This document shows, one piece after another, positions 7,263 to 59,738 of a DNA stretch of 64,000 bases; position 1 is the first letter of the stretch; each line of letters starts with the position of its first letter. The stretch comes from an uncultured Gammaproteobacteria bacterium. Lineage in GTDB: Bacteria > Patescibacteriota > Microgenomatia > UBA10105 > UBA927. The notes under the pieces were generated by a model. It made no database searches, had not been told where the DNA came from, and saw only the letters and a program-made list of their open reading frames with translations. The stretch is from positions 459,502 through 523,501 of the forward strand of contig CAYGFH010000001.1 in assembly GCA_964349125.1 (NCBI GenBank), written 5' to 3'. Position numbers and translations under genes: made by a program.

Positions 7263-7306
7263 TCATGAAATGATATAATAGAATAGTATTTCCCGAGACC
7301 GCCATT

Positions 7307-8788
7307 ATGCGCCGTTTTTTAGCACTCTATCCTGAGAAGTCCACAAGACTTCTTGAAATATTTATCCCGAGTCTTTCGTGGCTGCTTATCACAATGCCGC
7401 TGTGGCTGTCATTTTGGCATCCCGCACTCGTAGCCTATCTGATTATCACGTTTGACATATACTGGTTCTATAAATCATTCACCCTCGGCATTCACGCAAT
7501 ACGATCATTTGTCACCATGAATGCGCATGTAAAAATTGACTGGCTCACATTGGCGAGAATCCAGGATAGGTTTGACGATTTGCACCATATAATTATAATT
7601 CCTGAGTACAAAGAACCGATGCATATTCTCGAGCGCACACTCGATAACCTGATGAACCAGGACTATCCAAAAGAGAAAATCATCGTGGTACTGGCCACAG
7701 AACAAAAAGATACTGATTCGGCAAGTACGATCAAAACACTTGAACAGAAATATGGTAAACACTTCGGACGGTTCGTCGGGACCACGCACACCTTGAAAAC
7801 CGGTGAAGTCGTGGGGAAATCTTCAAACATGGCGCATGCGGCACGTGAAGTGTATGAGATGTGTAAAAAATGGAATATCAATCCTGAATTCACTACGGTC
7901 ACATCATGTGATGCGGATGCGCTGATACATCCGAAATATTTCTCTTATATGGCACACTCGTTCTTATCTGATCCAAACCGGAAGTATAACTTCTATCAGG
8001 GAGCCGTACTTTTTTATAATAATATTTGGCGCATTCCCCTCCCAAGCCGTGTTGTAAACACAATGTTCAGCATTGCAAACCTTTCGATGCTCTCCCAAAA
8101 AAGCAAACTTATCAATTTCTCCACTTATTCACTCTGTCTTCAAACCGCGAAAGATGCCGGGTTTTGGGGCGTTGATGTAATCCCCGAGGACTATCATATG
8201 TTTTTCCAGGTGTACTTCACCTATGGAGAACGTGTCAAAGTTCAAAGTATTTTTTTGCCACTCTTAATGGATTCCGCTGAAAGCCACGGCTTCTGGAAAA
8301 CCATGATAAATCAGTATGAACAATCCAAGAGATGGGCATGGGGCATCTCCGATATCCCGTATGTGATAAAAAATGCAGTGCTGCACACGGAAATATCAGC
8401 ATTGGACAGAAGCAGAAAAGTGCTTCATCTATTGGAGCAGCATGTATTTTGGCCTTCAAATTGGTTTATCCTTACCATAGGAAGCGTTATCCCACCACTC
8501 GTAAACCCGGCATTTAGCCGTACGGTATTAGGACATAATTTGTCACAGCTATCGTCAGGGATACTTACTCTGTCAATGACATTCATGTTGGTAATCATCA
8601 TTTTGGATGCCAGAACAAAACCGCCGAGGCCCAAGGAATTTTCTGCATGGAAACTGCCATTTCTCTACTTACAGTGGTTATCGTTGCCGATAGTTTCGTT
8701 TTTTCTGAACGCATTACCGGGACTAGATGCGCATACAAGAATGATACTTGGGAAGCGATTGGAATACCGTGTCACGGAAAAGGTATAA
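7307..8788 (+). CDS. membrane-embedded processive family-2 glycosyltransferase (CesA/NodC/HAS-like)
   Basis: N-terminal TM helices, 'DAD' motif ('TSCDADALI') and processive-GT2 'QxxRW' motif ('EQSKRWAWG'), further TM helices at the C-terminus. Confidence 0.75.
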   Translation: MRRFLALYPEKSTRLLEIFIPSLSWLLITMPLWLSFWHPALVAYLIITFDIYWFYKSFTLGIHAIRSFVTMNAHVKIDWLTLARIQDRFDDLHHIIIIPEYKEPMHILERTLDNLMNQDYPKEKIIVVLATEQKDTDSASTIKTLEQKYGKHFGRFVGTTHTLKTGEVVGKSSNMAHAAREVYEMCKKWNINPEFTTVTSCDADALIHPKYFSYMAHSFLSDPNRKYNFYQGAVLFYNNIWRIPLPSRVVNTMFSIANLSMLSQKSKLINFSTYSLCLQTAKDAGFWGVDVIPEDYHMFFQVYFTYGERVKVQSIFLPLLMDSAESHGFWKTMINQYEQSKRWAWGISDIPYVIKNAVLHTEISALDRSRKVLHLLEQHVFWPSNWFILTIGSVIPPLVNPAFSRTVLGHNLSQLSSGILTLSMTFMLVIIILDARTKPPRPKEFSAWKLPFLYLQWLSLPIVSFFLNALPGLDAHTRMILGKRLEYRVTEKV

Positions 8789-8802
8789 TAAATAGACCAC
8801 GT

Positions 8803-10152
8803 ATGATTGACGCGATCTTTAGTTCTGCACCACTAATATATCTGACTCAAAGCGTTTGGAGAGATGAGGCGTATTCCATACTCATCGCACAAACGCCAAT
8901 CAGTACCTATTTTCAACTGAGCTTTGAGCCCCCACTGTATTACACTCTCCTTCACTTTTGGATACAGATTTTCGGGACTTCGGAAGTCGCCGTCAGAAGT
9001 CTTTCTGTGTTTGCTTTTTTTATTGCCATATTCTTTGTCGCAAAATTAGCTCTAAAATTATTTGGAAAAAGTTGGGTATCTTGGTATTTACCTGTATTTT
9101 TCGCACTGAACCCAATGCTTTTGTACTACGCATTTGAAGCGCGATCGTACGGCTTATATATCGCTTTTACGGTGATGTCCACCTATTTTTATCTGGAAAA
9201 AAAGTGGCTCTGGTACACAATCACCTCAACGCTTGGTCTATACACACACGCATACATGGTATTTGTACTTCTCACCCAGGCAATTCATTATCTGTCCACA
9301 CAGGTACGGTATAGATACATACATATAAATAAATTTCTTCGTGACCCGATGGTTTTATCTTGTTTTGCTATACTCCTTTTATACAGTCCATGGCTCACAA
9401 AAATGTATCTGGATATACCGCGGCTCAAGCAGTCATGGTATTTCCCGGTGGATATGCAGCTATTTAAATCGGTGCTGGGAAATATTTTTTTAGGATACGA
9501 AGGAACTCCGTGGAATCTTTGGAAGTTTACCGCCCGCATTTCTGTAGTCATATTTTTCATTACCATGGGCAGTATGCTACGTAAACACAACAGATCTTTG
9601 TCATGGTACTTTCTCATACTTCTCTACTTGCCACTTTTCGTTATACTTGCGGCTTCAGTCTACAAACCGTTGTATGTCATGCGATATATGATACCTTCGA
9701 CTATTGCCCAAATAATGCTTATAGGTATAGCTCTTCATGCAATATCTAACAGACTTCTACAGAAATTCGTCGGAGCGAGCATGCTGTGCTTTGTTATCGG
9801 TTTTTCAATCTGGAATACTCAACATCATAAGAAGATAGATATGAGAAATATATTGGCACAGATTAATGCACTCCAGAGAGAACGTGATGTCATCTTGGTG
9901 GACGATGCGCTCATACTCTATGAAACAATGTACTACAATTCCTCAAATTCACCAGTTTACTGGTATAATCCACGTGGAGATGCATTCCCATGGTATATCG
10001 GAGATCATATTATTACAGAGTCGCAAATAGTCAAAGATGTCCCTCCGTATCCGCAGCGAGGATTTCTTATACATCTTGATGGAACATATAGTATTGTATA
10101 TAACGCACCAATATCTAGAAAACAACCCGGGTATAAAAATCAACAACTATGA
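8803..10152 (+). CDS. GT-C fold glycosyltransferase (GT39/ArnT/PMT_2-like; polyprenyl-phosphate-sugar dependent)
   Basis: ~450 aa polytopic membrane protein with the N-terminal loop pattern of ArnT/PMT family. Start moved to the ATG at 8803, just after the stop of the GT2 gene, because the longer track ORF from 8647 overlaps that gene by 140 nt. Confidence 0.7.
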   Translation: MIDAIFSSAPLIYLTQSVWRDEAYSILIAQTPISTYFQLSFEPPLYYTLLHFWIQIFGTSEVAVRSLSVFAFFIAIFFVAKLALKLFGKSWVSWYLPVFFALNPMLLYYAFEARSYGLYIAFTVMSTYFYLEKKWLWYTITSTLGLYTHAYMVFVLLTQAIHYLSTQVRYRYIHINKFLRDPMVLSCFAILLLYSPWLTKMYLDIPRLKQSWYFPVDMQLFKSVLGNIFLGYEGTPWNLWKFTARISVVIFFITMGSMLRKHNRSLSWYFLILLYLPLFVILAASVYKPLYVMRYMIPSTIAQIMLIGIALHAISNRLLQKFVGASMLCFVIGFSIWNTQHHKKIDMRNILAQINALQRERDVILVDDALILYETMYYNSSNSPVYWYNPRGDAFPWYIGDHIITESQIVKDVPPYPQRGFLIHLDGTYSIVYNAPISRKQPGYKNQQL

Positions 10153-10526
10153 AATTTCTTTTTATAAGTAAACCACAGCAGGAATGGATACTTATTCGGA
10201 CAAACTGGCTTATCCAAGTAAGCCATAAATTCGTAGCGCTTCTGGCTGTTGCTTCTATCATCATGATTGCTGTGTATTGGAAAATGCTTCCTCCACTCGT
10301 ACCTCTGTGGTATTCACGCCCGTGGGGATCTGATCAACTCGCCACTCCAATATTTCTGTTTTTCCTTCCTATATCTAGCATTACCATACATCTTATTAAC
10401 CTGGCGTTTGCGATGTATATAACAACTGAGTATCTGGTGTTCACACAGTCGCTATTTCTCTCATCACTCATCGTTTCGTTACTGTCGTTTATCGCCGTGA
10501 TAAAAATTATTTTTCTCGTCGTGTGA
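10149..10526 (+). CDS. small multi-TM membrane protein, unknown function
   Basis: 125 aa, 3-4 hydrophobic helices; 4-nt ATGA overlap with the upstream GT-C gene suggests translational coupling in the glycan operon. Confidence 0.5.
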   Translation: MKFLFISKPQQEWILIRTNWLIQVSHKFVALLAVASIIMIAVYWKMLPPLVPLWYSRPWGSDQLATPIFLFFLPISSITIHLINLAFAMYITTEYLVFTQSLFLSSLIVSLLSFIAVIKIIFLVV

Positions 10527-10530
10527 TTAT

Positions 10531-11610
10531 ATGAATTTTTTTGTTAATTTCCTCGTAGCGTTCATAGCCACTTGTGCCGTGACACCTCTGGTTATATCTC
10601 TCGCAAAAAAATACAATCTGGTAGATGATCCAAAAAACAGATTTCATCCCGCCCATACTCACAAAGGCATCATACCGAGGGCAGGTGGCGCAGCAATATT
10701 TGCAGGAATATTTATTGCGACATTTATTTTCGTTCCTATGTCCAGTCTCGCGGCAAGTATTTTGATAGGGTCACTCCTATTGGTTATTGTCGGGATCATA
10801 GATGATATTCATGATGTAAACCCATATATCCGCCTTGGCACAAACGCTATAGCCGCACTTCTCGTGGTATTTTCTGGTGCGGGCGTGCCATATATCACAA
10901 ACCCGCTCGGAGGAGTTATTCATCTGGACACGATTAAAATCGTCGTCCCTTTTTTAAATAACTATACCATCTTGGTGCTTGCCGATCTTTTTGCCTTTTT
11001 GTGGATTATGTGGACGATGAATATCATAGGATGGTCTGCGGGAGTGGATGGTCAGATGCCCGGTTTTGTTGCAATCAGTGCACTGACATTAGGAATACTG
11101 TCTATGAGATTTGCAGTTCATGACATCACACAGGTCGCGGTCACCACACTCGCATTCATTGTGGCGGGTGCATTCGCGGGATTTCTTCCCTGGAATTATT
11201 TTCCTCAAAAAATTATGCCAGGCTATAGCGGGAAAACACTTGCAGGATTTTTACTCGCACTCCTAGCTATTCTCTCATATGGGAAGGTGGGAACGGCACT
11301 GTTGGTCCTAGGAGTCCCGATGATGGATGCAGTATATACGCTACTTCGAAGAATCGGATCAAAAAAATCGCCAGTACTTGCCGATCGAGGACATTTACAC
11401 CACAGATTATTGGACCTTGGATGGAGTAAAAGAAAAATCGCCTTGTTTTACTGGAGTGTGTCAGCTATACTGGGTGCGGTTGCACTAACTGTCACTAGCC
11501 AGCAAAAATTTTTCGCTTTTTTGGTAGTCGCGGTTGGGTTTGGAGGATTTTTACTATGGGTGGCATTCTTTTCTCAATTTTCAAATCCGCAAGACCAAGA
11601 CAATGGCTGA
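10531..11610 (+). CDS. polyprenyl-phosphate N-acetylhexosamine-1-phosphate transferase (WecA/TagO/MraY family, Glycos_transf_4)
   Basis: 'LVDDPKNRFHPAHTHKGIIPRAGGAAIFAG' matches the WecA cytoplasmic-loop motif (DDxxxRKxH...P..GG); 10-11 TM helices. Confidence 0.85.
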   Translation: MNFFVNFLVAFIATCAVTPLVISLAKKYNLVDDPKNRFHPAHTHKGIIPRAGGAAIFAGIFIATFIFVPMSSLAASILIGSLLLVIVGIIDDIHDVNPYIRLGTNAIAALLVVFSGAGVPYITNPLGGVIHLDTIKIVVPFLNNYTILVLADLFAFLWIMWTMNIIGWSAGVDGQMPGFVAISALTLGILSMRFAVHDITQVAVTTLAFIVAGAFAGFLPWNYFPQKIMPGYSGKTLAGFLLALLAILSYGKVGTALLVLGVPMMDAVYTLLRRIGSKKSPVLADRGHLHHRLLDLGWSKRKIALFYWSVSAILGAVALTVTSQQKFFAFLVVAVGFGGFLLWVAFFSQFSNPQDQDNG

Positions 11611-12491
11611 AGAATCTCGCGTTATTCTCGACTATTCTTGTCACCGGTCACTTATTTAACCCACAATCTTTCAATGCATCCCTATTGGGATTTATTTCGT
11701 TTTGTCTGTTATCTTCTTCAAACTATATATTTAATGATGTCATGGATGCGGATAAAGACAGAAAGCATCCGTTTAAAAAATTTCGTCCTGTGGCAAGTGG
11801 CGCTCTCTCAAAAAATGTCGCTTTAACAACATCACTTCTGTTTGCTATTGCAGGACTGGGGATTAGTTATACATTGGGTGGGACGTTCTTCTTCCTCTCT
11901 GTGGTATTTATCGCTCTGGAGTATTCATATACGCTGTACTTTAAGCATGTATCAGTAATCGATATATTGGCTATTACGACCGCGTACTTTATCCGTGTCT
12001 ACGCTGGTGAAGCTGCCACAGGGTATCATATATCTGTCTGGCTGGCACTAGCGGTATTGTCACTAGCCTTGTTTCTTGCCATTGGAAAAAGGAGAGCGGA
12101 GCTTACACTTATGCAGGGATATAAGGTTGGAGCCAGTGATACCAGAGCCAGCCTGTCACATTACTCAGAAAAGCTACTGGATACATACACTGCAATGTTT
12201 GCTAACTCCACGTTCATTACCTACTCGTTTTACACATTTTTGGAAAAGCCGGTTATGCAGGGATTGTTTTTCCGCGGGTACAGTGAGTTTGCCGCAGATT
12301 TGCCCGGTCGGAAATGGATGATGCTTACTATTCCGTTTGTACTCTACGGTATTATGCGGTACATGCAATTGATTTACGAGGGCAAAGGAGAATCACCGGA
12401 ACAAATCCTTACTTCTGATATGCCACTGCTCACAACCGTTATTCTCTGGTCTATTACGGTGCTTCTGGTTGTCTACGGTATAGGAGGATAA
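11556..12491 (+). CDS. UbiA-family prenyltransferase, decaprenyl-phosphate 5-phosphoribosyltransferase-like (DPPR synthase)
   Basis: N-terminal 'ARPRQWLKNLALF' signature of Rv3806c-type enzymes, Asp-rich motif 'NDVMDADKDRKHP', 8-9 TM helices; 55-nt overlap with the upstream gene. Confidence 0.8.
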   Translation: MGGILFSIFKSARPRQWLKNLALFSTILVTGHLFNPQSFNASLLGFISFCLLSSSNYIFNDVMDADKDRKHPFKKFRPVASGALSKNVALTTSLLFAIAGLGISYTLGGTFFFLSVVFIALEYSYTLYFKHVSVIDILAITTAYFIRVYAGEAATGYHISVWLALAVLSLALFLAIGKRRAELTLMQGYKVGASDTRASLSHYSEKLLDTYTAMFANSTFITYSFYTFLEKPVMQGLFFRGYSEFAADLPGRKWMMLTIPFVLYGIMRYMQLIYEGKGESPEQILTSDMPLLTTVILWSITVLLVVYGIGG

Positions 12492-12578: not shown

Positions 12579-13496
12579 TTACTCTACTTTATCAGCGTAT
12601 TGTCCTGATACCCATCCCGTGTTTTTTCCGTCAAACTTAATTTCATACCAGCCACTCTTGGTGTCCAGAAGCGAGAATTTCTCGCCGGGGTTCACTCTCC
12701 CTGCCTCTGATGCCGAGGTAGACGGTTCAATCCGTACTCGAAGGAATCCAGTTGGCGTGTCTTTGATAACGACAAATGGTTTTTCTGGGTCAAGTGTGGT
12801 TGAACCGTTTTTCACTGTCGGAGTCGGTGTGAGTTTTCCGGTAGGTGATACTTTTTCTGTGGGTGTGACAGTCAGTGAGGCAGATTCCGAAGCGGTTTCG
12901 GAGGCTGCGAGATTTTGTGCTGAGCCCGACAACGCCAGCTTCAAGTTGGCAATTACTCTATAGCCCGCCGTGGTTTTAATCTTAATTGATCTAGTAAGGA
13001 ATCCTATGTTTGTGACGCTGATGGAATGATCTCCCGGGGATATATCCTGAACTGATAGTGGCGTCACGCCGCGCGAGACATCGTCAACCAGGATGGTAGC
13101 TCCATCAGGTGTTGTTGTGACTGACAGCTCAGATTGCTTACTGGTTATTTTCTCCAACCAAACGACATCAACAGCGGTGGTCAGATCAGTGTCGCTCAGG
13201 TTCGCATTTACGAAGGTAAGCAGATTCTGTCCGACAGCAATTTTCCCCTGCCATGTCGCAAGTTGGCTAGCAGTGGAGTCAGACACCAATTTTATCGTAT
13301 ATTCGCCGGTGGCGACTTTATCTTTATAAGGAGTCTTTCCGATATTTTTATTATCCAGGAATACGGTCGCGGGGGTTTGGCTGTCCACACGTAGCTCTCC
13401 GTATTTAGGACCGCGATTGCTTAAAAAACGGACGAGAGTGAATCCAAGAATCAAGATTCCGAGTATCCCCACTATGAATAGTATCTTACGCTTCAT
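12579..13496 (-). CDS. membrane-anchored PEGA-repeat protein with C-terminal SH3b-like domain
   Basis: Signal-anchor 'ILFIVGILGILILGF', two PEGA-like repeats ('IGKTPYKDKVATGEYTIKL', 'SRGVTPLSVQDISPGDHSISV'), C-terminal 'GWYEIKFDGKNTGWVSG' SH3b-like; start set at the Met preceding the TM helix. Confidence 0.6.
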   Translation of the reverse strand: MKRKILFIVGILGILILGFTLVRFLSNRGPKYGELRVDSQTPATVFLDNKNIGKTPYKDKVATGEYTIKLVSDSTASQLATWQGKIAVGQNLLTFVNANLSDTDLTTAVDVVWLEKITSKQSELSVTTTPDGATILVDDVSRGVTPLSVQDISPGDHSISVTNIGFLTRSIKIKTTAGYRVIANLKLALSGSAQNLAASETASESASLTVTPTEKVSPTGKLTPTPTVKNGSTTLDPEKPFVVIKDTPTGFLRVRIEPSTSASEAGRVNPGEKFSLLDTKSGWYEIKFDGKNTGWVSGQYADKVE

Positions 13497-13535
13497 GAGA
13501 GTTACATCATAGCACATCAAATCAGCTTGAAGCAA

Positions 13536-14266
13536 TTATTTGAGGCTATACCCACCATCCACCACGAGCATTTCGCCAGTGATATAACTTGCATCCTGGG
13601 ACGCCATAAATGCCACAGCTTTTGCAATCTCTTCGGGATCTGCAATCCGCTTCAGTGGAGTTTGCTCTGTGAAGTATGTGATCAACTCCGGTCCTGCGCT
13701 TTTTGTCATATCGGTCTTTACGTTACTTGGGGCAACGGCATTCACACGGATACCGGGTGCCAATTCTTTGGCAAATGATTTCGTAAGGGTTATCAGTCCG
13801 CCTTTCGCGCTCGTGTACGCGATGACGGGTGCCGCACCCAAAAATCCGTATACCGATGATATGTTTACGATAGTTCCTCCAGTTTTTTGCATATGTGGCG
13901 CAACTCACGGATCATAAGCCATGCGCTCGTCAGATTTGAATCGATCGTATGGTTCCAGGCGCTCACATCTGTCTTCCAACCGCGTTCTCCTATCTCGCCT
14001 GCGTTATTTACGAGCACATCTATCCTCCCGTAGGTATCCATAACCCGTGATACCAATGACGCCACATCACTTTGGTTTGATACATCGGCTTGTATCGCAA
14101 CTGCATGTTCCTTGCCTATTGTTTTCACCACCTCTTGGGCCAAAAGTTTGTTGGACTTATAGTTCACGACTACGGTAGCTCCCTCCTGTCCCAATTGTAG
14201 AGCGGTAGACCTCCCTATTCCCCGCGATCCTCCCGTAACAATCGCTATCTTATTTTTGAACCTCAT
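13536..14266 (-). pseudogene. short-chain dehydrogenase/reductase (FabG-like) interrupted by a -1 frameshift in an A6 homopolymer (could be a sequencing error)
   Basis: N-terminal ORF (13865-14305) carries the Rossmann 'TGGSRGIG' and 'NNAG' motifs. C-terminal ORF (13536-13892) carries the catalytic 'YTSAKGG' (YxxxK) motif. They overlap at 13865-13892; adding one A to the A-run at 13883-13888 (minus-strand view) gives a continuous '...RHICKKTGGTIVNISS...'. Confidence 0.6.
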
Positions 14267-14597
14267 ACCCCTCCATTTCGCTGACCAACCACTGATAATA
14301 TGCACCTGATATGTTATCTACCCGTAGGGAAAATATACACGGATTTGAGTCACTGTGCAGTTGTTTTACTTCTGTTTCTATGGACTGAAATTTTGATGTT
14401 ACTGATTTAAGAAGCAGTACGGCACCGTGTATCACCTCTTCAATTTCTCCGCTCTTTGGTGGCCAAAATGCAGCCGACTGCATATCTGGCAGAATATTGT
14501 AACAGGGCGCAAGTCGCTTTTTCATCACTGCCAATCCGATCTTTTTTGCTTCTTCGATAGCTACGCAGGGAATGTATATCACAATCATTGTATCCAT
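14250..14597 (-). CDS. cutA: divalent-cation tolerance protein CutA
   Basis: 115 aa; 'LAPCYNILPDMQSAAFW ... YQWL' matches CutA1 family pattern. Confidence 0.8.
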   Translation of the reverse strand: MDTMIVIYIPCVAIEEAKKIGLAVMKKRLAPCYNILPDMQSAAFWPPKSGEIEEVIHGAVLLLKSVTSKFQSIETEVKQLHSDSNPCIFSLRVDNISGAYYQWLVSEMEGYEVQK

Positions 14598-27401: not shown

Positions 27402-28796
27402 CTATGGACGAAGTAGCTGTTCCATATGACTTTCAATTTCATATGCACGTTTCTTATTCTTCCCGAAAATGATGTATGCGAGTTTATGATAAGAGAGCAG
27501 ATTCTCCGATATTATTATTAATCCCTCATTGGTATGTTTATCAAATAAGATTGGCCGTAACGTATCTAGCATTTCACTAAAAGAGTACTCGTGTGTTAGT
27601 GATAAATCATAATTATTAAATGACAGGATATATGTCAGATACATAAAATCTTTTCCGAATAATTTTTCTGCAACGGTATGCACATGAGTTCCACCCGTCC
27701 TTCTAACATTTGACTCGGTCACATATAATTGCCCATTTTTTGCGGCAACAAAATCGACATCAAAATATCCTCTGTATCCATTTGCCCGATATTGTTCAGC
27801 TATGTGAAATCCTGTATCTACCATTCTTGCTGTAAGTTGATCAGATATCACTTCATTGTTGATTTCCATGCCTCGAAAGACACCATCTTTTGCCATTCTC
27901 ATTCCGCCCGAAAACAAAAATTCAACATGTCCATTTTTTTGAATATGATATTCGACATTAGGAAATCCGCCGCCAACGGCATAGTTAATGGAGATCAACG
28001 ATTCAATAATTATCGGAAATAACCTCCAATAATCGTCTTTTTTAAGAATATTTAATATTTTCTTCTGACATGCCCCGAAATCGAGTGGCAATTCTCCTTC
28101 ACGAAGAATCAAAACACCCAATCCTGCATGGCCTTTATTTGTTTTTATAACCACGCCGTGTTCCTTTATGTATTTGTTTGCTGCAATTCTAGATGCGTCA
28201 ATAATACCGCTTACCACAATACCGTCCGGCATCATCAGGTCAGGCTCTGCTGCCCTATTTAACTGCGCAAGCTGTCGAATGCCTGATTTACTTCCGTAGA
28301 AATTCACTGTCCAGGCATCTTCCTCTTCCGGAGCATCAGGAGTGAACACAGTAAGTCCTTTTGAACGCAATACCCCTACTAGGTTGATAAACTGTTCCGA
28401 GGTTGAATAACTTTTAATTGTGAGCCGTTTCTGACCGTTCGCTGCTACTATCAGTGCCTCCATAATTGAATCGTCACGCAGGATGTCATCACAAATGATT
28501 CCACTATGGGAATTGGGAACAAGAAATCTGAAATTTTTCTTCCCGAAAAGTTGGTAATAATATTCCAAAAATTGCACATCAATTGCGTGAGGCAGAACAA
28601 AAATCATATTTTCCTCATCGCAAAAAGAAAACAGATCTCGGTCACCCAAATCAGCATTCTCTTCTATCTCCTGATGACGAGCCTCTTTGCTAGAAAACGC
28701 AGCGATAAACGACCAAACATCTTCCGACATATTGAAAATGTAGACGGTGTTATTTGATATTTTGAGCGGCCCGGAAGGGCTTGGGGATACATCCAT
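27402..28796 (-). CDS. ATP-grasp superfamily carboxylate-amine ligase, unknown substrate
   Basis: 464 aa; C-terminal half has ATP-grasp signatures 'HGVVIKTNKGHAGLGVLIL' and 'GYRGYFDVDFVAAKNGQLYVTESNVRRTGG'; ~200-aa N-terminal domain of unknown type. Confidence 0.7.
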   Translation of the reverse strand: MDVSPSPSGPLKISNNTVYIFNMSEDVWSFIAAFSSKEARHQEIEENADLGDRDLFSFCDEENMIFVLPHAIDVQFLEYYYQLFGKKNFRFLVPNSHSGIICDDILRDDSIMEALIVAANGQKRLTIKSYSTSEQFINLVGVLRSKGLTVFTPDAPEEEDAWTVNFYGSKSGIRQLAQLNRAAEPDLMMPDGIVVSGIIDASRIAANKYIKEHGVVIKTNKGHAGLGVLILREGELPLDFGACQKKILNILKKDDYWRLFPIIIESLISINYAVGGGFPNVEYHIQKNGHVEFLFSGGMRMAKDGVFRGMEINNEVISDQLTARMVDTGFHIAEQYRANGYRGYFDVDFVAAKNGQLYVTESNVRRTGGTHVHTVAEKLFGKDFMYLTYILSFNNYDLSLTHEYSFSEMLDTLRPILFDKHTNEGLIIISENLLSYHKLAYIIFGKNKKRAYEIESHMEQLLRP

Positions 28797-28864
28797 GAAG
28801 TTTTTATAAATTGATCACATAAAAAGAATACAGTATTTAAGCGGGATGTAAAGAGGGATAAATA

Positions 28865-31225
28865 TTATAATCGTGCACGGTGCACTATTTCAGCCTCAAC
28901 CAGCTCTCTGGATCGTCCATATTTCAATCTGGATAATTGAATAATTGCCTCGGCAACTTTTTTATTTTTTTGCGCATTTACTTTTGTCATGTCTTTTGTC
29001 AAATCTATACTAAATGGTTTTACGGGTTCGTTGCGCACACTTGTTTTGACATACGCGTTAAATTTATCAATATTTATGAGATCAGCTTCATTGAATGTCG
29101 GTTGAAATTCATGTTGCAGATAATTGGCATCGGTGACTCCGACCCGGAATGATGCCACTGTTCCTACGTTGCCAAATACAGCATTTTTCACTTCTTCTTC
29201 CATCTGTCCGATAAATTGATTTGCAACGATAAGATTTAATCTGTATTTACGGGCTTCGGACAATATTTGGGCAAAATCCGGTGTAGCAAAATTCTGAAAT
29301 TCATCAACATATAGGAAGAAATCTCTTCGCTTGTCTTCAGGAATTTCCTGCCGGCTCATGGCAGAAATCAAAATTCTTGGTACCAAAATGAGCCCCAAGA
29401 AATTACTGTTTTCTTCACCGATTTTACCCTTCGCTAAATTGATCAGCAATATTTTCCCCTCATCCATGACATTTCTAAAGTTATAGCTGGATTGGGATTG
29501 TCCTATGATATTCCGCATCATTTTATTGGTGACAAACCGGCCGAACTTTGAAACGATGTAATCGAGGACCTCAGACTTATGAAAATCTGCGGTTTGTGCG
29601 ATTTGATCTGTCCAGTACCGTTTAATGATAGGATCCGTTAATTTGGGTAACAGTTCTTGTACAAAAGCTGCATCCGTTAGCACACGGACCACTTCGATGA
29701 ATGTATTTCCCGGTTCTACCATAACAGTCAACATCGCGTTTCGAACCGCATGTTCAAAGCGTGGACCTATAATACCTGTTTTTTGAGGGTCGTACAGTTT
29801 GTACATAAGCCCTACGATCGATGTGACTACGAAATGCTTTTGCTCTTCGGTGGAGGCTTCAAGCATGTTTAGCCCCATTGGCCGCTCAAGATCAGATGGG
29901 TCAAAATAAATAACATCTTCGGCGCGTTCCGGAGGAATACGGTTAAGAACCCCTTCTACCAAATCTCCGTGTGGATCAACAACCGCAACCCCTTTGCCGT
30001 CACGGATGTCCTGAATAATCATCTCTTCCAATAACTGCGATTTTCCAGTACCAGTTTTTCCAATCACATACATATGTCTTCGTCTATCATCATCTCCAAT
30101 ATAGATTGGACGTTCTACTCCGCGATACCTCGAGGTGCCCAAAAACATGCCGCTCATTGGGATTTGTGAGGGCGCCGGCGCCCGTTTTGCATTTAGCCAA
30201 AAAATGTGCGCGGTTTCGATAGACTTGTTCGGAAAATGGAAAATGGTTGCAAGTTCGTCGCTGTTTAGCACGCTATACTGACGAAATAATGGCACGTTCA
30301 TAATTGGGAAGTAGCGGTAGATAAAATCAACAATAAACAAATGCTTAAACGGCATTTTTACTTTTGTAAAATGATTGTAATCAGATGCGAACTGACTGAA
30401 ACTCGTCAATATGTTATCCAAATGCATATGCGAATCCTCTTTTGTATTTGCTGACACGACACATCGGATGACAACATTAAATCCGGGTTTCCCAGTTTTT
30501 TGTTCTATAGCCTCGAGTGATTTGGGATCCACCTTAAAACTTGCTTTCTCAGGGTTTGATTCATCTTTTTTCACATGCGATATATATGACCGTCCCTGAT
30601 CTCTCCATTTTCCATCAGCAGGTTGCACTAAAATCTGGATAGCAGCTCCTTCACCTGGTTTCATTTTTGCCATAACGGAGGTAATAGATGACAACGGATC
30701 AGTCGGCAAATCTCGATATATTCGAAGTGGATTATAATCACTTGAGCTTAAACAAAGAGCAGCAAACGACACCTTCCCCTGCTCACTAAATATTGAATAC
30801 TCTTCCACGAGCTTTATATCGGCCCCGGGGTATGCACCATGAATTTGTTTTTCCACCAAATCCATAAGTTTTTTGGGAACTGCAACATAGAACCGAATAT
30901 CTTCGGATCTCGCTACTATTTCAAATGATAAATGCTCTTTTGGTTTCAGAAATGACCACATATCCGAATGCGCAATACTATGCAAACTGGAAAAAAGCTG
31001 CTCAGCAACATCAATTTTCACTTCGTTATCACGCGGAACGGCCACCTGCAAAAGCACTGTTTCAAGAGAATGCTCCTCACGGTTGCGGTATTTCCATAGG
31101 AGAAACACTATGTATCCGATCAGTGCGAGGATACCGACAAAAAATAGTATTAGACCCAGACTAATTCCAAGCATTTGAAGCCTATACGTGAGATCCGCGA
31201 GTTTTTCCGTCATCTGTGTATCCAT
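28865..31225 (-). CDS. membrane-anchored VirB4/TraC/HerA-superfamily (DUF87-type) ATPase
   Basis: N-terminal TM helix 'ISLGLILFFVGILALIGYIVFLLW', ~350-aa non-ATPase domain, then Walker A 'YVIGKTGTGKSQLL', 'VDPHGDL' motif, Walker B 'FLYVDEFQNF' and 'ARKYRLNLIVANQ', as in VirB4/HerA/TraD-type translocation ATPases. Confidence 0.7.
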   Translation of the reverse strand: MDTQMTEKLADLTYRLQMLGISLGLILFFVGILALIGYIVFLLWKYRNREEHSLETVLLQVAVPRDNEVKIDVAEQLFSSLHSIAHSDMWSFLKPKEHLSFEIVARSEDIRFYVAVPKKLMDLVEKQIHGAYPGADIKLVEEYSIFSEQGKVSFAALCLSSSDYNPLRIYRDLPTDPLSSITSVMAKMKPGEGAAIQILVQPADGKWRDQGRSYISHVKKDESNPEKASFKVDPKSLEAIEQKTGKPGFNVVIRCVVSANTKEDSHMHLDNILTSFSQFASDYNHFTKVKMPFKHLFIVDFIYRYFPIMNVPLFRQYSVLNSDELATIFHFPNKSIETAHIFWLNAKRAPAPSQIPMSGMFLGTSRYRGVERPIYIGDDDRRRHMYVIGKTGTGKSQLLEEMIIQDIRDGKGVAVVDPHGDLVEGVLNRIPPERAEDVIYFDPSDLERPMGLNMLEASTEEQKHFVVTSIVGLMYKLYDPQKTGIIGPRFEHAVRNAMLTVMVEPGNTFIEVVRVLTDAAFVQELLPKLTDPIIKRYWTDQIAQTADFHKSEVLDYIVSKFGRFVTNKMMRNIIGQSQSSYNFRNVMDEGKILLINLAKGKIGEENSNFLGLILVPRILISAMSRQEIPEDKRRDFFLYVDEFQNFATPDFAQILSEARKYRLNLIVANQFIGQMEEEVKNAVFGNVGTVASFRVGVTDANYLQHEFQPTFNEADLINIDKFNAYVKTSVRNEPVKPFSIDLTKDMTKVNAQKNKKVAEAIIQLSRLKYGRSRELVEAEIVHRARL

Positions 31226-31226
31226 A

Positions 31227-31712
31227 TTATTCTTTCACACGGATAAATTTGCCATGTACATTTTTGAGTGTTATATGCAAAAATTTAAGTCTCCTCACAC
31301 ACCATTCAGCTAGCCAGCGCATGGAATTCGTTACTTCCTGATGTAAACCGACAGCAATCTGATCATCAGATAACGGTAATACAACTGTAGACGTTGTTTG
31401 CACTGGAATGTTAGCACCGGATGCTGATACCCCCAATTTCGCGATCGGAGGCGGTATTGGAATTGTCGTGGGTTGTATGCGAACGCCGGCTGACTGCACC
31501 TCCTTTGGTAATTCAAACTCTTGACCACTTGCATTAGACAACACTTCACGCTGGTCTGGCATCCCGCTTACTGGCGCCGTTTCTTTGCTCCCGTGAGAAA
31601 TCGCCCCACCGGAAGTAGGTTCATCAGATGATTTCCGCGTATTTCCCGCAACTACCGGCTGATTTGGAGATGATGAAATTGGAGGTGAAGCTATATTTGG
31701 CAGGTCATTCAT
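31227..31712 (-). CDS. Pro/Ser-rich low-complexity protein, unknown function
   Basis: 161 aa; 'PPISSSPNQP ... TIPIPPPIAK'; stop/start overlaps with both neighbours suggest operon membership. Confidence 0.45.
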   Translation of the reverse strand: MNDLPNIASPPISSSPNQPVVAGNTRKSSDEPTSGGAISHGSKETAPVSGMPDQREVLSNASGQEFELPKEVQSAGVRIQPTTIPIPPPIAKLGVSASGANIPVQTTSTVVLPLSDDQIAVGLHQEVTNSMRWLAEWCVRRLKFLHITLKNVHGKFIRVKE

Positions 31713-33811
31713 AGTTCTATCATAGCATGACTAAACGCATAAATAACACCACTAGGTACTGTGATATTTCCGGGTGTCCGTATTCCAATGGATACTGTGT
31801 TGGGATATATTTTTTTATCTTTTTTCTTTTTTGTCTTTTGCTTGTTTGTGCCTGTGGACTGCGCAAAACCCTGCTCGCGAATCATAGCCAAATGCCAGAT
31901 GATCGCAAAAAGCAACCAGGAAGAGGGTTCTTTTCGGATAATACCATCAGGTGAATCCTTTATGGATTCATACAGCGACATGGGAGATGTGGCTGTATCT
32001 GTACCGTGTTCACGTTGCCGTTGTAGTACTGATTGAATCTTTTCCAGGGATGAAAAATAGTTCATATATTTATATAGCAGCATCACGGTTACGGCAAAAG
32101 AAAATTGTCTGACATGCTGAGCTTCTGAGATAGACTCCGATGCGCGTCTTGTATCATTGATTTCTCTGTCTGTATACGCACGCGGCACTGCTGTTGGTTC
32201 AGAGTTCTGATTATGATGGATAAGATCAAGAAGTATCTCATGCAGCGATTCTATCCGTTCTTGCACATGCTTTTTTTCTGTGGTGACAATGTGCATCCGC
32301 TCTGATTGTGACGCCTGGTGCAATATTTGAAGCATATCAACTGTCAGTATCAGCGTTTCATAATCCACGGATGATGAATCATTGACACCGGATTTCTGTT
32401 GTTCCAACAGTTCATTCGTTACTTCTATTAATTCAGCTGATATTCCTTTTTCTTCTAATATATGTGTTGTTTTATCCTCCTTTATGATCACGACAGGAAC
32501 ACTACTATCTTCCGAATTTTCATTATGTGATTCCGCAGCAGTCGGTACCTGGTGTTCTATGGAGAATTCCTCCATATTTCCTGATAGCACATCCAAGGCA
32601 AAAAGCGCGCCTCCTATTGGCATGGATTCATCCGAGATACTTCGCACCAGAATTTGCTCTGCTGTTTTGGTTATTTCATACGCTTCTTGCACGTCTGTAT
32701 ATAGGAAATCTGATTGTTCTGTAGATAGCTGCAATGAATCCTTGGCGATTTGCTTCCATACTGATACCAATTCAGATTCAGAGAGATGCAGTGATTCATC
32801 CGGCTCTGTTGATAACAGGAGCAACGATTCTGTATGCTCTTGCTGCATAAGTAAAGCTTCAACAGTGGAAGGGATTACCCAATCTTCATTACTAAATTCA
32901 GGCGCGATGATGGATCTCGATTCATCATCATGTCTCTTGGAAATATACTCAAACACACCACTAATCGTTTCGACAGAACCCTCATAGATATGTTTTGCCG
33001 TGGAATCTGTCGTCTGGCTTGCCAGTTCGATGACGCCGAATACTGCCATAGCCAATCCCTGTCGCACATTTTCCTGTGCCAACATGGTTTCCAACGCTTT
33101 AGCAGCGTACTGTTCCACTTGCCTATTTCGTTCCTCAAGAAGTAATGGATATGCTGATGTTGACCGGGATAATCTATCTAAATACTCGTTTTGTGATGAA
33201 TCACCCGATAAACTATTTTTTGCTTCCTCGAAAATCTGATTGACACCAACTTCCTTTGTGAAAAAAAGGGCCTGATTTTGGTCAGCACTCTTAGATATAT
33301 CTGCCCCACCTTGCAATCCAAGTCCGGTAAAGAATCTCTGTAACTGAGCATCTGTACCTTTGAATTCAACCGCTAACGCCTTAATCGTATTATTTTCTCC
33401 TCTTGAATATAAGTAGACAAAACTTCTTCCATATCCTAAATCAGGACTTATTGTTGCAGCCATTTTTACATCTGGATTGCTCATGAGCCCGGACTCTGCA
33501 TGGAGCGTTCTTCCAATTCTGTCGCCGCCAATATCATTGGGATCATTGAGTTCTTCAACTGTTTTTCCACCACCATCAACCCATCGTCCTGCTTCGTTTA
33601 TATTATAATCAAATGGAATTAACGGTTGATGCAAAATAAATTCGTGCTGCCAACCGACTGCATCCTTCGCAAGCGCTTTGGACGCTGCATCCATCGATGC
33701 TCCCTGCTGGAGAATACCACTTAAGTAATCTTGTGACTTATCATCATTCCATTCGTGACTCATAATGACCAAAAAAAACTTCTCAGGTACTCGAGAAGTG
33801 TATATAAACAT
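31709..33811 (-). CDS. large hypothetical protein (700 aa), no recognisable domain; Lys-rich C-terminal tail
   Basis: Long ORF with coding-like composition, co-directional and overlapping (ATGA) with the downstream gene; acidic/Ser-rich middle, 'KQKTKKKKDKK' near the C-terminus. Confidence 0.6.
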   Translation of the reverse strand: MFIYTSRVPEKFFLVIMSHEWNDDKSQDYLSGILQQGASMDAASKALAKDAVGWQHEFILHQPLIPFDYNINEAGRWVDGGGKTVEELNDPNDIGGDRIGRTLHAESGLMSNPDVKMAATISPDLGYGRSFVYLYSRGENNTIKALAVEFKGTDAQLQRFFTGLGLQGGADISKSADQNQALFFTKEVGVNQIFEEAKNSLSGDSSQNEYLDRLSRSTSAYPLLLEERNRQVEQYAAKALETMLAQENVRQGLAMAVFGVIELASQTTDSTAKHIYEGSVETISGVFEYISKRHDDESRSIIAPEFSNEDWVIPSTVEALLMQQEHTESLLLLSTEPDESLHLSESELVSVWKQIAKDSLQLSTEQSDFLYTDVQEAYEITKTAEQILVRSISDESMPIGGALFALDVLSGNMEEFSIEHQVPTAAESHNENSEDSSVPVVIIKEDKTTHILEEKGISAELIEVTNELLEQQKSGVNDSSSVDYETLILTVDMLQILHQASQSERMHIVTTEKKHVQERIESLHEILLDLIHHNQNSEPTAVPRAYTDREINDTRRASESISEAQHVRQFSFAVTVMLLYKYMNYFSSLEKIQSVLQRQREHGTDTATSPMSLYESIKDSPDGIIRKEPSSWLLFAIIWHLAMIREQGFAQSTGTNKQKTKKKKDKKIYPNTVSIGIRTPGNITVPSGVIYAFSHAMIEL

Positions 33812-41182: not shown

Positions 41183-41210
41183 TAGGGCTTGATTAGCGCC
41201 CTATTTTTTT
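41183..41210 (+). terminator. rho-independent terminator after PRTase gene
   Basis: 6-bp stem 'tagggc/gcccta' (41183-41188 / 41198-41203) followed by T7 run 41204-41210. Confidence 0.5.
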
Positions 41211-41241
41211 GTCCAATTTTCTGTATGGCGCATATACGAAA

Positions 41242-41487: not shown

Positions 41488-41510
41488 TATTGTAGTTGAG
41501 TGTGTCACTT

Positions 41511-51130: not shown

Positions 51131-51176
51131 AATGAGCCTTGTTACTAGCCTATAGATTATGGTATAAACACATTCT

Positions 51177-56130: not shown

Positions 56131-56181
56131 ATACTTTTACCGTATCTTACTTTCTATTTCCTTGTCAATAGTGACAATAGA

Positions 56182-56868: not shown

Positions 56869-56902
56869 ACGTCAGATAAGTATACGATACTAGTATAAGT
56901 TA

Positions 56903-57295: not shown

Positions 57296-57298
57296 ATG

Positions 57299-57793: not shown

Positions 57794-57796
57794 AGT

Positions 57797-59737: not shown

Positions 59738-59738
59738 A

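Follow-up and report, generated by a model that had tools for sequence, protein, structure and literature searches.

A Gottesmanbacteria operon that may build a cell-surface glycopolymer and decorate it with a lipid-carried ribose-type sugar

Introduction

Pentofuranosylation by a UbiA-type polyprenyl-phosphate 5-phosphoribosyltransferase (PPPRS) and a GT-C transferase is widespread, Gram-positive bacteria included (Kelly et al. 2024, PMC11127046), and this paradigm includes a GT-C promiscuous for Ribf and Xylf (PMC11127046). In the Citrobacter youngae O1/O2 systems (ORF15-ORF14-ORF12) a PRPP-using PPPRS, a GT-C and a small membrane protein share a glycan locus, and ribofuranose is the default sugar without an epimerase (PMC11127046). 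The mycobacterial decaprenyl-P-arabinose/arabinogalactan pathway comprises Rv3806c, Rv3807c, DprE1/E2, Rv3789 and the Aft/Emb enzymes, together with WecA and GlfT2. Pseudomonas aeruginosa Pa5196 has a PPPRS, DprE1/E2 homologues and the GT-C enzyme TfpW, which is reported to arabinosylate pilin with a PPPRS-derived donor (bioRxiv 10.1101/2020.04.19.049825; PMC11127046). In Salmonella O:54 (WbbE/WbbF; PMC2841628) a WecA-type initiator works with one membrane GT2 synthase, which does both the polymerisation and the export of an Und-PP-linked glycan. An uncharacterised EPS locus on the Lactococcus cremoris plasmid pF27D is annotated as a hypothetical protein of 462 aa, a DPPRS, a HAD-IB phosphatase and GtrA, and in Chondrinema the PPPRS adjoins DprE1/E2-like genes and a GT39. 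The three-component Gtr, Arn and CsbB-GtcA-YfhO systems for hexose (or Ara4N) modification are also among the closest known; their gene orders are GtrB-GtrC-GtrA, ArnC-ArnT-ArnE/F and CsbB-YfhO.

Here we analyse a tightly packed five-gene operon. We give an even chance to the reading that its products make a sugar polymer of the cell surface, to which a lipid-carried ribose-type sugar is then added as decoration.

Results

The window, that is, the whole 64-kb stretch of DNA analysed, comes from Candidatus Gottesmanbacteria, an uncultured phylum of the CPR, in agreement with the CPR-like organism proposed in a preliminary description. Five plus-strand ORFs at 7307-12491 form a tight operon in the order GT2, GT-C, small protein, GT4 and UbiA, listed here with two flanking features:

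7271..7279, plus strand: extended -10-like element TGATATAAT in the 44-nt TatD-GT2 spacer (read directly)
7307..8788, plus strand: membrane-embedded cellulose-synthase-like GT2, 493 aa (motifs, Pfam)
8803..10152, plus strand: GT-C-fold glycosyltransferase, 449 aa (database protein, motifs, structural matches)
10149..10526, plus strand: small membrane protein with some three hydrophobic segments, 125 aa (75-orthologue alignment, hydropathy profile)
10531..11610, plus strand: WecA/TagO-like polyprenyl-phosphate sugar-1-phosphate transferase (GT4), 359 aa (Pfam, TIGR02380)
11556..12491, plus strand: UbiA-superfamily polyprenyl-phosphate 5-phosphoribosyltransferase (PPPRS/DPPRS type), 311 aa (NCBIfam, PDB 8j8j)
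12579..13535, minus strand: PEGA + SH3b protein, anchored in the membrane, its linker rich in Ser/Thr/Pro (Pfam PEGA 7e-18, SH3_3 3.6e-13)

Read directly, the junctions agree with the near-zero or overlapping spacing described before: 14 nt separate the GT2 stop from the GT-C start, GT-C and the small gene overlap in ATGA, and 4 nt lie between the small gene and GT4. The GT4-UbiA overlap of 55 nt was measurable in 76 related loci and is conserved in each of them. The mechanical ORF of GT-C starts at 8647; we place the true start at ATG 8803 because the database holds an exact 449-aa protein (P0121) and the relatives measure 438-451 aa. The element TGATATAAT weakly suggests a possible operon promoter and ranks only as a lead, since a consensus scan of the region found 13 promoter-like sites against 18.3 expected, with no excess.

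The same gene order, with MetRS-TatD and PEGA/SH3 flanks, recurs in every long-enough locus from 80 species-representative genomes and is therefore not due to chance; the operon is present in essentially every Gottesmanbacteria genome. Median identities are 69.6% for UbiA, 65.1% for GT2 and 64.1% for GT4, against 61.9% for MetRS; within Gottesmanbacteria UbiA thus ranks first in conservation among the operon proteins. Even in a deeply divergent cluster (L087; 37% identity for GT2, 50% for UbiA) UbiA keeps its position. Three sister-lineage clusters (L163, L164, L167) read MetRS-TatD-GT2-GT-C-small-GT4-PEGA without a UbiA gene; L092 lacks UbiA alone, and L091 lacks GT4, the small protein and UbiA while the GT2-GT-C pair persists. 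Among the loci compared, GT-C adjoins GT2 in 62 of 62 and UbiA in 36 of 41, and the minimal conserved unit is GT2 plus GT-C. Since orthologous clusters without UbiA exist, a PPPRS in the same cluster cannot be a requirement of GT-C in every lineage.

In GT2 a GT-A domain lies between two N-terminal helices and a set of C-terminal ones; the protein matches Pfam Glyco_tranf_2_3 and Glyco_trans_2_3. Across 36 homologues D202-A-D204, P293-E-D295 and Q339-S-K-R-W343 do not vary, and the C-terminus carries a gating-loop-like Y487-RVTEK-492. All cellulose-synthase signatures are present, which is consistent with the processive enzyme (DAD + QxxRW) first proposed, and the protein aligns far better to BcsA and HAS than to GtrB, DPMS or ArnC. 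We count against our main reading (see Discussion) the low confidence of the structure model in the C-terminal membrane part, and the occurrence of QxxRW in non-processive lipid glycosyltransferases as well. An additional small soluble GT2, which the present window lacks, lies directly upstream in 26 related loci. The small membrane protein, found in all loci of sufficient length, has a conserved loop (LPPxVPLWYSxPWGxEQLAxP); it matched no Pfam family, one orthologue giving a sub-threshold DUF1648 match, and a comparison with Lactococcus GtrA and SMR proteins found no similarity. It could be a GT-C partner or a lipid-sugar translocator.

GT2, GT-C and the small protein might instead be the core, a self-contained Gtr/Arn-like trio, a tentative possibility that we hold somewhat unlikely: GT2 would synthesise a polyprenyl-P-hexose or other lipid-linked sugar and might translocate it too, GT-C would transfer it outside with the small protein as flippase or subunit, and PPPRS would be a later add-on providing a second donor for the same GT-C or for a transferase elsewhere. 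The invariant GT2-GT-C adjacency, persisting in L091, L092 and the sister lineages, speaks for it, as do the parallel of the order GT2, GT-C, small membrane protein with the Arn, Gtr and CsbB-YfhO systems and the extra soluble GT2, suggestive of more cytoplasmic steps. However, GT2 has the full processive-synthase motifs, QxxRW and YRVTEK included, and is nearer to BcsA and HAS, the small protein, of about three TM segments, resembles neither GtrA nor SMR proteins, and UbiA both holds its place in the most divergent cluster and is the best conserved of the set.

The GT-C protein is the only polytopic GT-C-like protein of the window. Invariant positions are the acidic motif W19-R-D-E22, after the first helix, and the pair R294-Y295; towards the C-terminus the protein forms a mixed alpha/beta domain. 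Its PMT_2 match is weak (Pfam, E=0.004), but the GT-C fold of the GT-C/PMT-like transferase proposed earlier is shown by the best structural matches, ALG12, ArnT and PMTs, all users of polyprenyl-P-sugar donors. The structure lies closer to hexose/Ara4N transferases than to Aft/Emb enzymes, and no sequence similarity was detectable to the GT-C genes adjoining PPPRS in Lactococcus and Chondrinema; we count both against our main reading.

In each of 85 loci the convergent, opposite-strand neighbour of the cluster is the PEGA-SH3 gene, which holds this place in the UbiA-less L163, L164 and L167 too. The Ser/Thr/Pro content of the encoded linker reaches a median maximum of 0.55 per 40 aa over 107 orthologues; 12 other proteins of the window give 0.25-0.53. 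The gene product may be a functional partner or acceptor. GT-C could accordingly be a PMT/TfpW-like O-glycosyltransferase of Ser/Thr-rich surface proteins (the PEGA-SH3 protein, type IV pilins), using a PPPRS-derived pentofuranose or another lipid-linked sugar, with no polysaccharide as target. The invariant neighbour with its ever-present linker, the TfpW precedent and a type IV pilus locus within the window favour this view, which we nevertheless consider doubtful: such linkers are frequent in secreted proteins and hence unspecific, the pilus genes lie >40 kb from the operon, ALG12 and ArnT score above PMTs as structural matches, and the view does not account for a WecA-like enzyme and a GT2 of the synthase type as obligatory companions of GT-C.

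GT4 matches Pfam Glycos_transf_4 (3.6e-22) and scores 98.4 bits with the wecA model TIGR02380, 65.3 with archaeal MraY and 53.8 with mraY, all below the equivalog cut-offs; the lead of wecA over mraY agrees with the WecA-type enzyme first described. Its sole PDB sequence match is MraY (5jnq, E 7e-09), and it carries the motifs D91-D-IHD95, N164...AGVDG174 and H288-LHH291.

The UbiA protein (Pfam UbiA 1.6e-23; homologues at 70-86% identity) scores 204.3 bits with the NCBIfam DPPRS model NF008978 (cut-off 207) and 202.2 with NF008977 (cut-off 234). Models of quinone, heme, chlorophyll and GGGP prenyltransferases reach at most 51 bits. The only strong PDB match is 8j8j (Rv3806c; E=2.2e-34, 29.6% identity), in which I21-RPRQWVKN-29 aligns to A12-RPRQWLKN-20 here. 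Of the 12 residues through which Rv3806c contacts PRPP or Mg (roles in PMC10994848), ten are identical here: R13, K19, Y57, N60, D64, K74, R77, Y125, K130 and Y144 correspond to R22, K28, Y70, N73, D77, K87, R90, Y138, K143 and Y157. K28, Y70 and Y157 are phosphoribose-specific contacts not conserved in prenyltransferases (PMC10994848). These features support membership of the DPPR-synthase (Rv3806c) subfamily, as first proposed. The generic Pfam assignment, the DPPRS scores just under their cut-offs and the JGI records that name some homologues 4-hydroxybenzoate polyprenyltransferase would suit a conventional prenyltransferase of aromatic or lipid substrates (quinone, heme O, GGGP-type) with no sugar role, but this is highly improbable and effectively refuted by the lead of the DPPRS models over all other UbiA subfamilies (about 150 bits at least), the Rv3806c match, the kept contacts and the setting within a glycan operon.

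Discussion

In our preferred reading, a decorated surface polymer, the WecA-like enzyme would, judging from its family, make a lipid-PP primer or anchor by loading undecaprenyl phosphate with a sugar-1-phosphate, probably HexNAc-1-P. GT2, by its fold and motifs, would extend the glycan and thread it through the membrane, for which the WecA-primed synthase-dependent O-antigen route is a precedent (PMC2841628). UbiA very probably moves 5-phosphoribose from PRPP to polyprenyl phosphate, as the residues contacting PRPP, Mg and the 5'-phosphate are conserved. We would guess that a phosphatase encoded elsewhere strips the 5'-phosphate and that lipid-P-ribofuranose crosses to the outer face, possibly via the small 3-TM protein. 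GT-C would then use a polyprenyl-monophosphate donor to place a sugar on the exported polymer or on a wall protein. The window also encodes an undecaprenyl-PP phosphatase (BacA) and class A PBPs, which implies Und-P-based wall metabolism. In favour of this reading we count the PPPRS assignment, the GT-C fold, the tight operon, its constraint, the single GT-C candidate, the L087 linkage, this wall metabolism and the published paradigm with its Lactococcus and Chondrinema examples. Besides the points on GT2 and GT-C given above, we count against it the UbiA-less clusters, the minimal unit of GT2 plus GT-C, and the lack of a phosphatase, transporter and epimerase in the sampled DNA.

Neither a DprE1/DprE2-like or other epimerase, nor a phosphoribose phosphatase (HAD or PAP2), nor a GtrA, EmrE or MATE-type transporter was found in the window or in about 1.56 Mb of orthologous neighbourhoods, so that the epimerase pair or phosphatase looked for on the advice of the preliminary description is missing from both. 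Of the two sugars it had proposed, arabinofuranose is left unsupported, and D-ribofuranose is likelier because a cluster-linked epimerase is absent. That GT-C uses the PPPRS product, which had been read from their adjacency, is plausible given operon membership and the published paradigm, but the UbiA-less clusters make it not obligatory.

Like the Citrobacter youngae systems, the operon joins a UbiA-type PPPRS, a GT-C and a small membrane protein, and D21/E22 and R294-Y295 here recall D31/E34/Y35 and R349/Y350 of ORF12, a comparison with the published text rather than an alignment (PMC11127046). Here, however, the HAD phosphoribose-phosphatase domain or gene is absent, no kinship to EmrE/ArnEF-like or GtrA-type transporters is detectable for the small protein and its roughly three TM segments, GT-C carries no CBM, orthologous clusters without PPPRS occur, and the genes form a phylum-wide core operon, which also encodes a WecA-like enzyme and a GT2 of the synthase type, instead of a variable serotype locus. 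With mycobacteria the operon shares a UbiA homologous to Rv3806c and the logic of a WecA-type initiator, a GT2 polymerase and a lipid-linked-pentofuranose GT-C serving a wall polysaccharide in a peptidoglycan-containing cell. It differs in that DprE1/E2, the PAP2 phosphatase and the GtrA-like Rv3789 were not found in the DNA sampled, in a GT-C closer to ALG12, ArnT and PMT than to AftA, AftB, AftD or Emb, in one GT-C in place of a battery, and in a membrane-embedded synthase-type GT2 where GlfT2 is soluble. Lactococcus pF27D also has a PPPRS homologue in a monoderm surface-glycan locus without an epimerase, but that locus is plasmid-borne and strain-variable, has the phosphatase and GtrA genes absent here, and its putative GT-C has no sequence similarity to ours. 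Salmonella O:54 shares the initiator and the single synthase and lacks PPPRS and GT-C; the extra soluble GT2 of the 26 related loci sits where a WbbE-like adaptor glycosyltransferase would be expected, and such a small adaptor GT2 is missing in our window. Pseudomonas aeruginosa Pa5196 likewise combines PPPRS and GT-C in a type IV pilus organism, its protein acceptor paralleling the possible PEGA-SH3 acceptor, whereas here GT-C does not adjoin pilin genes and epimerases were not found in the sampled DNA.

The preliminary description held this chemistry to be undescribed for such bacteria. Its kind is already known (Kelly et al. 2024, PMC11127046), and in NCBI and JGI records the Gottesmanbacteria protein already bears the name decaprenyl-phosphate phosphoribosyltransferase; our literature search found no biochemical data on any CPR homologue. 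The chemistry is known from mycobacteria and O-antigens, not from Gottesmanbacteria, in which, if our main reading holds as a whole, a matter we judge evenly poised, the operon would be vertically inherited and strongly constrained for making an envelope glycopolymer.

A conserved five-gene operon in Candidatus Gottesmanbacteria

The open reading frames and their junctions bear out the tightly spaced, same-strand arrangement of five genes reported in the preliminary description:

7307-8788, + strand: GT2 glycosyltransferase, 493 aa
8803 (start ATG), + strand: GT-C protein, 449 aa, beginning 14 nt past the GT2 stop codon
10149-10526, + strand: small membrane protein, 125 aa
10531-11610, + strand: GT4-family phosphotransferase, 359 aa
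11556-12491, + strand: UbiA-family protein, 311 aa

The mechanical ORF of the GT-C gene begins at 8647, within the GT2 gene; we place the true start at ATG 8803 because an identical 449-aa protein is present in the databases (P0121) and its relatives measure 438-451 aa. The GT-C and small genes meet in an ATGA overlap, a 4-nt spacer separates the small gene from the GT4 gene, and the GT4 and UbiA genes overlap by 55 nt, an overlap kept in 76 of the 76 loci where it could be measured. The 44-nt spacer 5' of the GT2 gene contains a TGATATAAT element. A generic promoter scan of the region was uninformative, promoter-like sites not being in excess, and the matches of a terminator scan were all intragenic.

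The nearest homologues of all three proteins searched belong to Candidatus Gottesmanbacteria (Microgenomates group, Patescibacteria), and the window sequence is matched by an ENA contig of ~0.81 Mb. A one-genome-per-species scan yielded 80 loci, all from Gottesmanbacteria or Patescibacteria MAGs. The order MetRS-TatD-GT2-GT-C-small-GT4-UbiA, followed by an opposite-strand PEGA/SH3 gene, was found in every locus long enough to display it. All sampled Gottesmanbacteria genomes have the cluster, whose UbiA, GT2 and GT4 proteins are more conserved than methionyl-tRNA synthetase. The operon thus belongs to the core, is strongly constrained and is no chance juxtaposition; given its presence in all sampled genomes and this constraint, its product is likely a core part of the envelope and not an antigen that varies.

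Table. Median identity to the window protein
UbiA, 69.6%
GT2, 65.1%
GT4, 64.1%
MetRS, 61.9%
TatD, 56.8%
Small protein, 46.3%
GT-C, 43.9%

Dozens of the species-representative MAG records that carry the cluster (related loci L008-L087) are titled 'uncultured Gammaproteobacteria bacterium'. Their proteins are 60-86% identical to those of Gottesmanbacteria, and the titles are evidently wrong. In 26 Gottesmanbacteria loci an extra gene for a soluble 232-aa GT2 (PF00535, 1e-30) lies between TatD and the synthase gene (for example L031 4995-5693 and L017 4897-5628); its product may serve as an adaptor glycosyltransferase or make a lipid-P-sugar, and the window has no such gene. The convergent neighbour of the operon, found in 85 of 85 loci and also in lineages that lack the UbiA gene, may be a wall-binding partner or a target for glycosylation:

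12579-13535, - strand: PEGA + SH3b protein, membrane-anchored, its linker rich in Ser/Thr/Pro

The UbiA-family protein as a predicted phosphoribosyltransferase

The UbiA-family protein scored 204.3 and 202.2 bits against the NCBIfam DPPRS models NF008978 and NF008977, marginally missing their equivalog cut-offs (207 and 234, respectively). Its best score outside DPPRS-like models was 51.1 bits, and the ubiquinone, menaquinone, heme O, chlorophyll and GGGP models each gave ~51 bits or less. The only strong match in the PDB was mycobacterial Rv3806c (8j8j, E=2.2e-34), and PGAP names close homologues DPPRS, although the window protein itself scores below the cut-offs. The N-terminal motif on which the preliminary description had based its assignment to the DPPR-synthase type is real, A12-RPRQWLKN-20 aligning with I21-RPRQWVKN-29 of Rv3806c.

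The substrate contacts listed in the Rv3806c structure paper (PMC10994848) were transferred to the window protein by MAFFT alignment, and R22, K28, Y70, N73, D77, K87, R90, Y138, K143 and Y157 (Rv3806c numbers) are identical. Seven of the nine Mg2+/pyrophosphate/ribose contacts (R22, N73, D77, K87, R90, Q135, Y138, K143, K208) are thereby retained. Q135 is replaced by E122, the consensus of our alignment of Gottesmanbacteria UbiA proteins (A3) showing Q in most of the group, and K208 by A198; both positions are variable also in the Lactococcus and Chondrinema polyprenyl-phosphate phosphoribosyltransferases (PPPRS). K28, Y70 and Y157, which bind the 5'-phosphate of PRPP and are not conserved in prenyltransferases (PMC10994848), correspond to K19, Y57 and Y144, invariant in A3. 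Because of these scores and the conserved 5'-phosphate contacts, the protein does not group with quinone or GGGP enzymes, and its sequence predicts a PPPRS with high confidence. A quinone or heme prenyltransferase was rejected on the model scores. Plasmids of rhizobia, cyanobacteria, Bacteroidota, haloarchaea, actinomycetes and Lactococcus commonly carry PPPRS homologues.

The GT-C protein

The window GT-C protein matches Pfam PMT_2 at E=0.003 (18.1 bits, below the gathering score of 26.1), and 14 of 42 relatives match it at E of 0.01 or better. Searches of the PDB, with the single sequence and with a profile, gave no meaningful match, and fold comparison alone succeeded.

Table. Fold comparison of the GT-C protein
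ALG12, 22.3
ArnT, 21.6
Pmt4, 19.5
ALG9, 17.7
AglB/STT3/PglB, 15-17
AftA, 15.0
AftB, 13.7
AftD, 13.1
EmbA, 8.7

The best fold matches are all users of polyprenyl-monophosphate sugar donors, and the Aft/Emb arabinofuranosyltransferases are not the closest. Besides the fold, the protein has the polytopic membrane core and the acidic motif in the first extracytoplasmic loop of a GT-C enzyme: W19-R-D-E22 stands right after the first helix, the usual site of the GT-C catalytic acid, and it is invariant, as is R294-Y295, even in relatives of only 24-45% identity. Searched with a profile, 1.84 billion representative proteins gave 285 matches at E<=1e-30 and 29,500 at E<=1e-3, which places the protein in a subfamily of its own within a very large superfamily; PGAP names one distant relative GT39. 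The preliminary description had considered that this protein might be a plain ArnT; we reject this, since CPR bacteria lack lipid A and the sequence shows no detectable similarity to ArnT. Comparison of the GT-C profile by hhalign with the GT-C proteins that adjoin PPPRS in Lactococcus and Chondrinema, as well as with that of the divergent L087 cluster, gave probabilities of <=1.3%; the templates were single sequences with little power, and these negatives are therefore weak.

Putative synthase, WecA-like enzyme and small membrane protein

All four motifs of processive synthases (D, DxD, (T)ED and QxxRW) occur in the GT2 protein; DxD/ED/QxxRW are invariant in 36 homologues and present in 104-105 of 105 unique orthologues. 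Its D202xD204, P-E294-D295, Q339xxR342W343 and C-terminal Y487-RVTEK-492 are kept in 101-105 of the 105, and the last of these resembles the FxVTxK gating-loop motif of BcsA. The D202-A-D204 and Q339-SK-RW343 motifs noticed earlier are thus genuine, and a processive synthase is the best reading of the sequence. A profile search of the PDB was uninformative for this protein.

The GT4 protein is a PNPT (PF00953, Glycos_transf_4, 3.6e-22) and, as had been proposed, it is WecA-like, with 98.4 bits against the wecA model and 54-65 bits against MraY models (mraY 53.8). It falls far below the equivalog cut-offs (98.4 vs 326 for wecA), and it was rejected as the cell's MraY (54 bits vs a cut-off of 192). 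It has the motifs D91-D-IHD95 and H288-LHH291; the latter appears similar to the HIHH motif of WecA, and its AGVDG motif to that of eukaryotic and archaeal GPT.

The small protein has ~3 hydrophobic segments and a conserved loop, LPPxVPLWYSxPWGxEQLAxP. Searches against Pfam and NCBIfam assigned it to no family (one orthologue had a sub-threshold match to DUF1648), and no similarity to GtrA was found.

Search for phosphatase, transporter and epimerase genes

Pfam gene lists covering nearly the whole window contain no DprE1/E2-type FAD-oxidase/SDR pair, no PAP2, no HAD phosphatase and no second GT-C protein. They do include BacA (Und-PP phosphatase), two class A PBPs and a type IV pilus locus. 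The following genes were recorded elsewhere in the window:

13536-13892 and 13865-14305, - strand: SDR split between overlapping ORFs of 118 and 146 aa, each matching adh_short
27402-33811, - strand: large genes (464, 161, 700 aa) without Pfam assignment and, adjoining them, a ~782-786-aa gene with DUF8128, DUF87 and TrwB-like ATPase matches
~41200-41700 (L006 66-580): two tandem 81-aa ORFs of no family, between two Pribosyltran genes
48890-53726, + strand: tandem pair of class A PBP genes (746 and 849 aa)
54751-55527, + strand: BacA/UppP gene
55672-63038, - strand: type IV pilus block with N_methyl pilin, T2SSF, T2SSE, and several unannotated ORFs, among them one of 646 aa that faintly matches LVIVD

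The genes at 27402-33811 may be a conjugation or DNA-transfer-like module; a database look-up of the gene at 28865-31225 gave no record.

As queries for tblastn we used two reference PPPRS loci, those of Lactococcus cremoris pF27D (hypothetical 462 aa, DPPRS, HAD-IB, GtrA) and Chondrinema litorale (DPPRS, FAD oxidoreductase, SDR, acyltransferase, GT39), against 1.56 Mb of sequence comprising the window and 87 related loci, ~20 kb per genome. These reference sets detected PPPRS itself and weak generic SDR matches only. In this 1.56 Mb the Lactococcus HAD-IB phosphatase was not found, the Chondrinema DprE1-like protein had 0 matches, and the DprE2-like protein had weak generic SDR matches (at best 1e-14, in a single locus, and 0.005 within the window). 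The Lactococcus set lies in a dairy-strain EPS locus (L089 6587-9706) and is compact; it is likely a ribofuranose side-chain system of a culturable monoderm, and a convenient comparator.

The split SDR downstream of the operon was rejected as DprE2, because its match is weak (E of 0.005), other genomes do not keep the gene beside the cluster, and it is frameshifted. An independent ENA contig (L005) shows the same split, so we regard the gene as either a pseudogene with a frameshift or an assembly error common to both. Since no DprE1/E2 type was found in the window and ~20 kb per genome of related loci, arabinofuranose, one of the two pentoses suggested in the preliminary description, is unsupported, and ribofuranose becomes the default.

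Sister lineages and the partner of the GT-C protein

Sister loci were collected by scanning metagenomes with a diverse GT-C alignment and by look-ups of distant GT-C relatives. GT-C was accompanied by GT2 in 62/62 loci, by GT4 in 48/49 and by UbiA in 36/41. The following loci lack UbiA:

L163 6479-11638, L167 6472-11604 and L164: metagenome loci
L092 6520-12071: GT2-GT-C-SHMT-small-GT4
L091 6404-9401: GT2-GT-C pair alone, beside SecE-NusG

In L163, L164 and L167, GT2 is 43-46% and GT-C 35-36% identical to the window proteins and the block is syntenic, including MetRS, TatD and PEGA; the mapped ORFs of L163 and L167 place the PEGA gene directly after GT4, with no space for a UbiA gene. In L087, the most divergent cluster (GT2 37%, UbiA 50% identical), UbiA occupies its usual place. 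Together, L087 and the UbiA-less sister loci indicate that the PPPRS association is old, mostly retained and losable. The invariant core is GT2 + GT-C, not UbiA + GT-C. The pairing of PPPRS with GT-C on which the preliminary description had built its pathway therefore stands as a shared operon in ~80 genomes, but orthologous GT-C clusters do without PPPRS in these five loci.

Discussion

Three-component extracytoplasmic pentofuranose systems combine a PPPRS and its HAD phosphatase with a small transporter, a GT-C enzyme and optional epimerases (Kelly et al. 2024, PMC11127046). As in those systems, PPPRS and GT-C share one operon here, in ~80 genomes. In contrast to them, neither a HAD nor a PAP2 phosphatase appears in the Pfam lists of the window, nor a HAD-IB match in the 1.56 Mb. 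A 125-aa membrane protein of ~3 TM, with no Pfam family and no GtrA match, comes after the GT-C protein. In the window and ~20 kb per genome, no phosphatase, transporter or epimerase is recognisable. The GT-C protein is of a separate sequence family, with no similarity seen to two other PPPRS-adjacent ones (Lactococcus, Chondrinema), the module is fused with a synthase GT2 and a PNPT as a phylum-wide core operon, and PPPRS is dispensable in sister lineages. In its logic the proposed pathway resembles the synthesis of mycobacterial arabinogalactan as well as the WecA-primed, synthase-dependent route to O-antigens (PMC2841628).

The analysis shows the enzyme families and folds, the conserved catalytic residues and the structure and conservation of the operon; the donor and acceptor of the GT-C protein, the processivity of the GT2, the sugar of the GT4 enzyme and the role of the small protein are inferred. 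The best-supported model, to which we give an even chance, combines WecA-like priming, a GT2 polymer, a PPPRS donor and pentofuranosylation by GT-C outside the membrane. The WecA-like enzyme would prime on Und-P, and the synthase-type GT2 would lengthen and export the glycan. PPPRS, whose gene appears translationally coupled to that of the other Und-P-consuming enzyme (GT4), would form Und-P-Ribf-5-P from PRPP. A phosphatase encoded elsewhere and a translocation step would follow, and GT-C would then put the pentofuranose on the polymer outside the membrane.

The universal pairing of GT2 and GT-C would also fit a Gtr/Arn-like trio of GT2, GT-C and small protein to which PPPRS is an add-on, an arrangement that we consider unlikely in view of the synthase signatures of the GT2. 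PMT/TfpW-like O-glycosylation of proteins, for example of the PEGA-SH3 protein that always adjoins the cluster and has a linker rich in Ser/Thr/Pro, seems to us quite improbable. Equally doubtful is a more far-reaching proposal, an essential secondary wall polymer made by these five genes as a minimal set, with the WecA-like primer enzyme and a cellulose-synthase-like exporter as its builders, GT-C adding Ribf or Ribf-5-phosphate on the outer side of the membrane, and the conserved 3-TM protein acting as translocator or GT-C subunit. If there were truly no phosphatase, Ribf-5-phosphate would yield a teichoic-acid-like anionic wall. No envelope glycopolymer pathway would have been defined in a CPR lineage before this one; PRPP-derived glycosylation would gain a new architecture, and the 3-TM protein would be a new kind of lipid-sugar translocator or GT-C subunit.

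The preliminary description had regarded this chemistry as undescribed for such bacteria. As for the literature this holds: our search found no paper joining CPR/Patescibacteria to decaprenyl-phosphate phosphoribosyltransferase, arabinofuranose or DprE1, the literature on Gottesmanbacteria and glycosyltransferases gave a passing mention in one paper only, and no follow-up on GT136 was found. However, NCBI and JGI already annotate the Gottesmanbacteria protein as decaprenyl-phosphate phosphoribosyltransferase. The principle will not surprise a glycobiologist; still, the operon is a concrete, testable way into the envelope chemistry of a CPR phylum, and the invariant GT2 + GT-C core is a separate lead on the cooperation of synthase-type GT2 and GT-C enzymes. 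Almost nothing is known experimentally of CPR/Patescibacteria envelopes, though the surface is where these episymbionts contact their hosts. If the model of WecA-like priming, synthase-made polymer and pentofuranosylation by GT-C is true, PRPP-derived, lipid-linked pentofuranose glycosylation would reach a third major context, after the walls of Mycobacteriales and the side chains of O-antigens or EPS, with a reduced parts list that has no recognisable phosphatase, transporter or epimerase, and CPR wall chemistry would become heterologously testable with five small genes and known assay formats.
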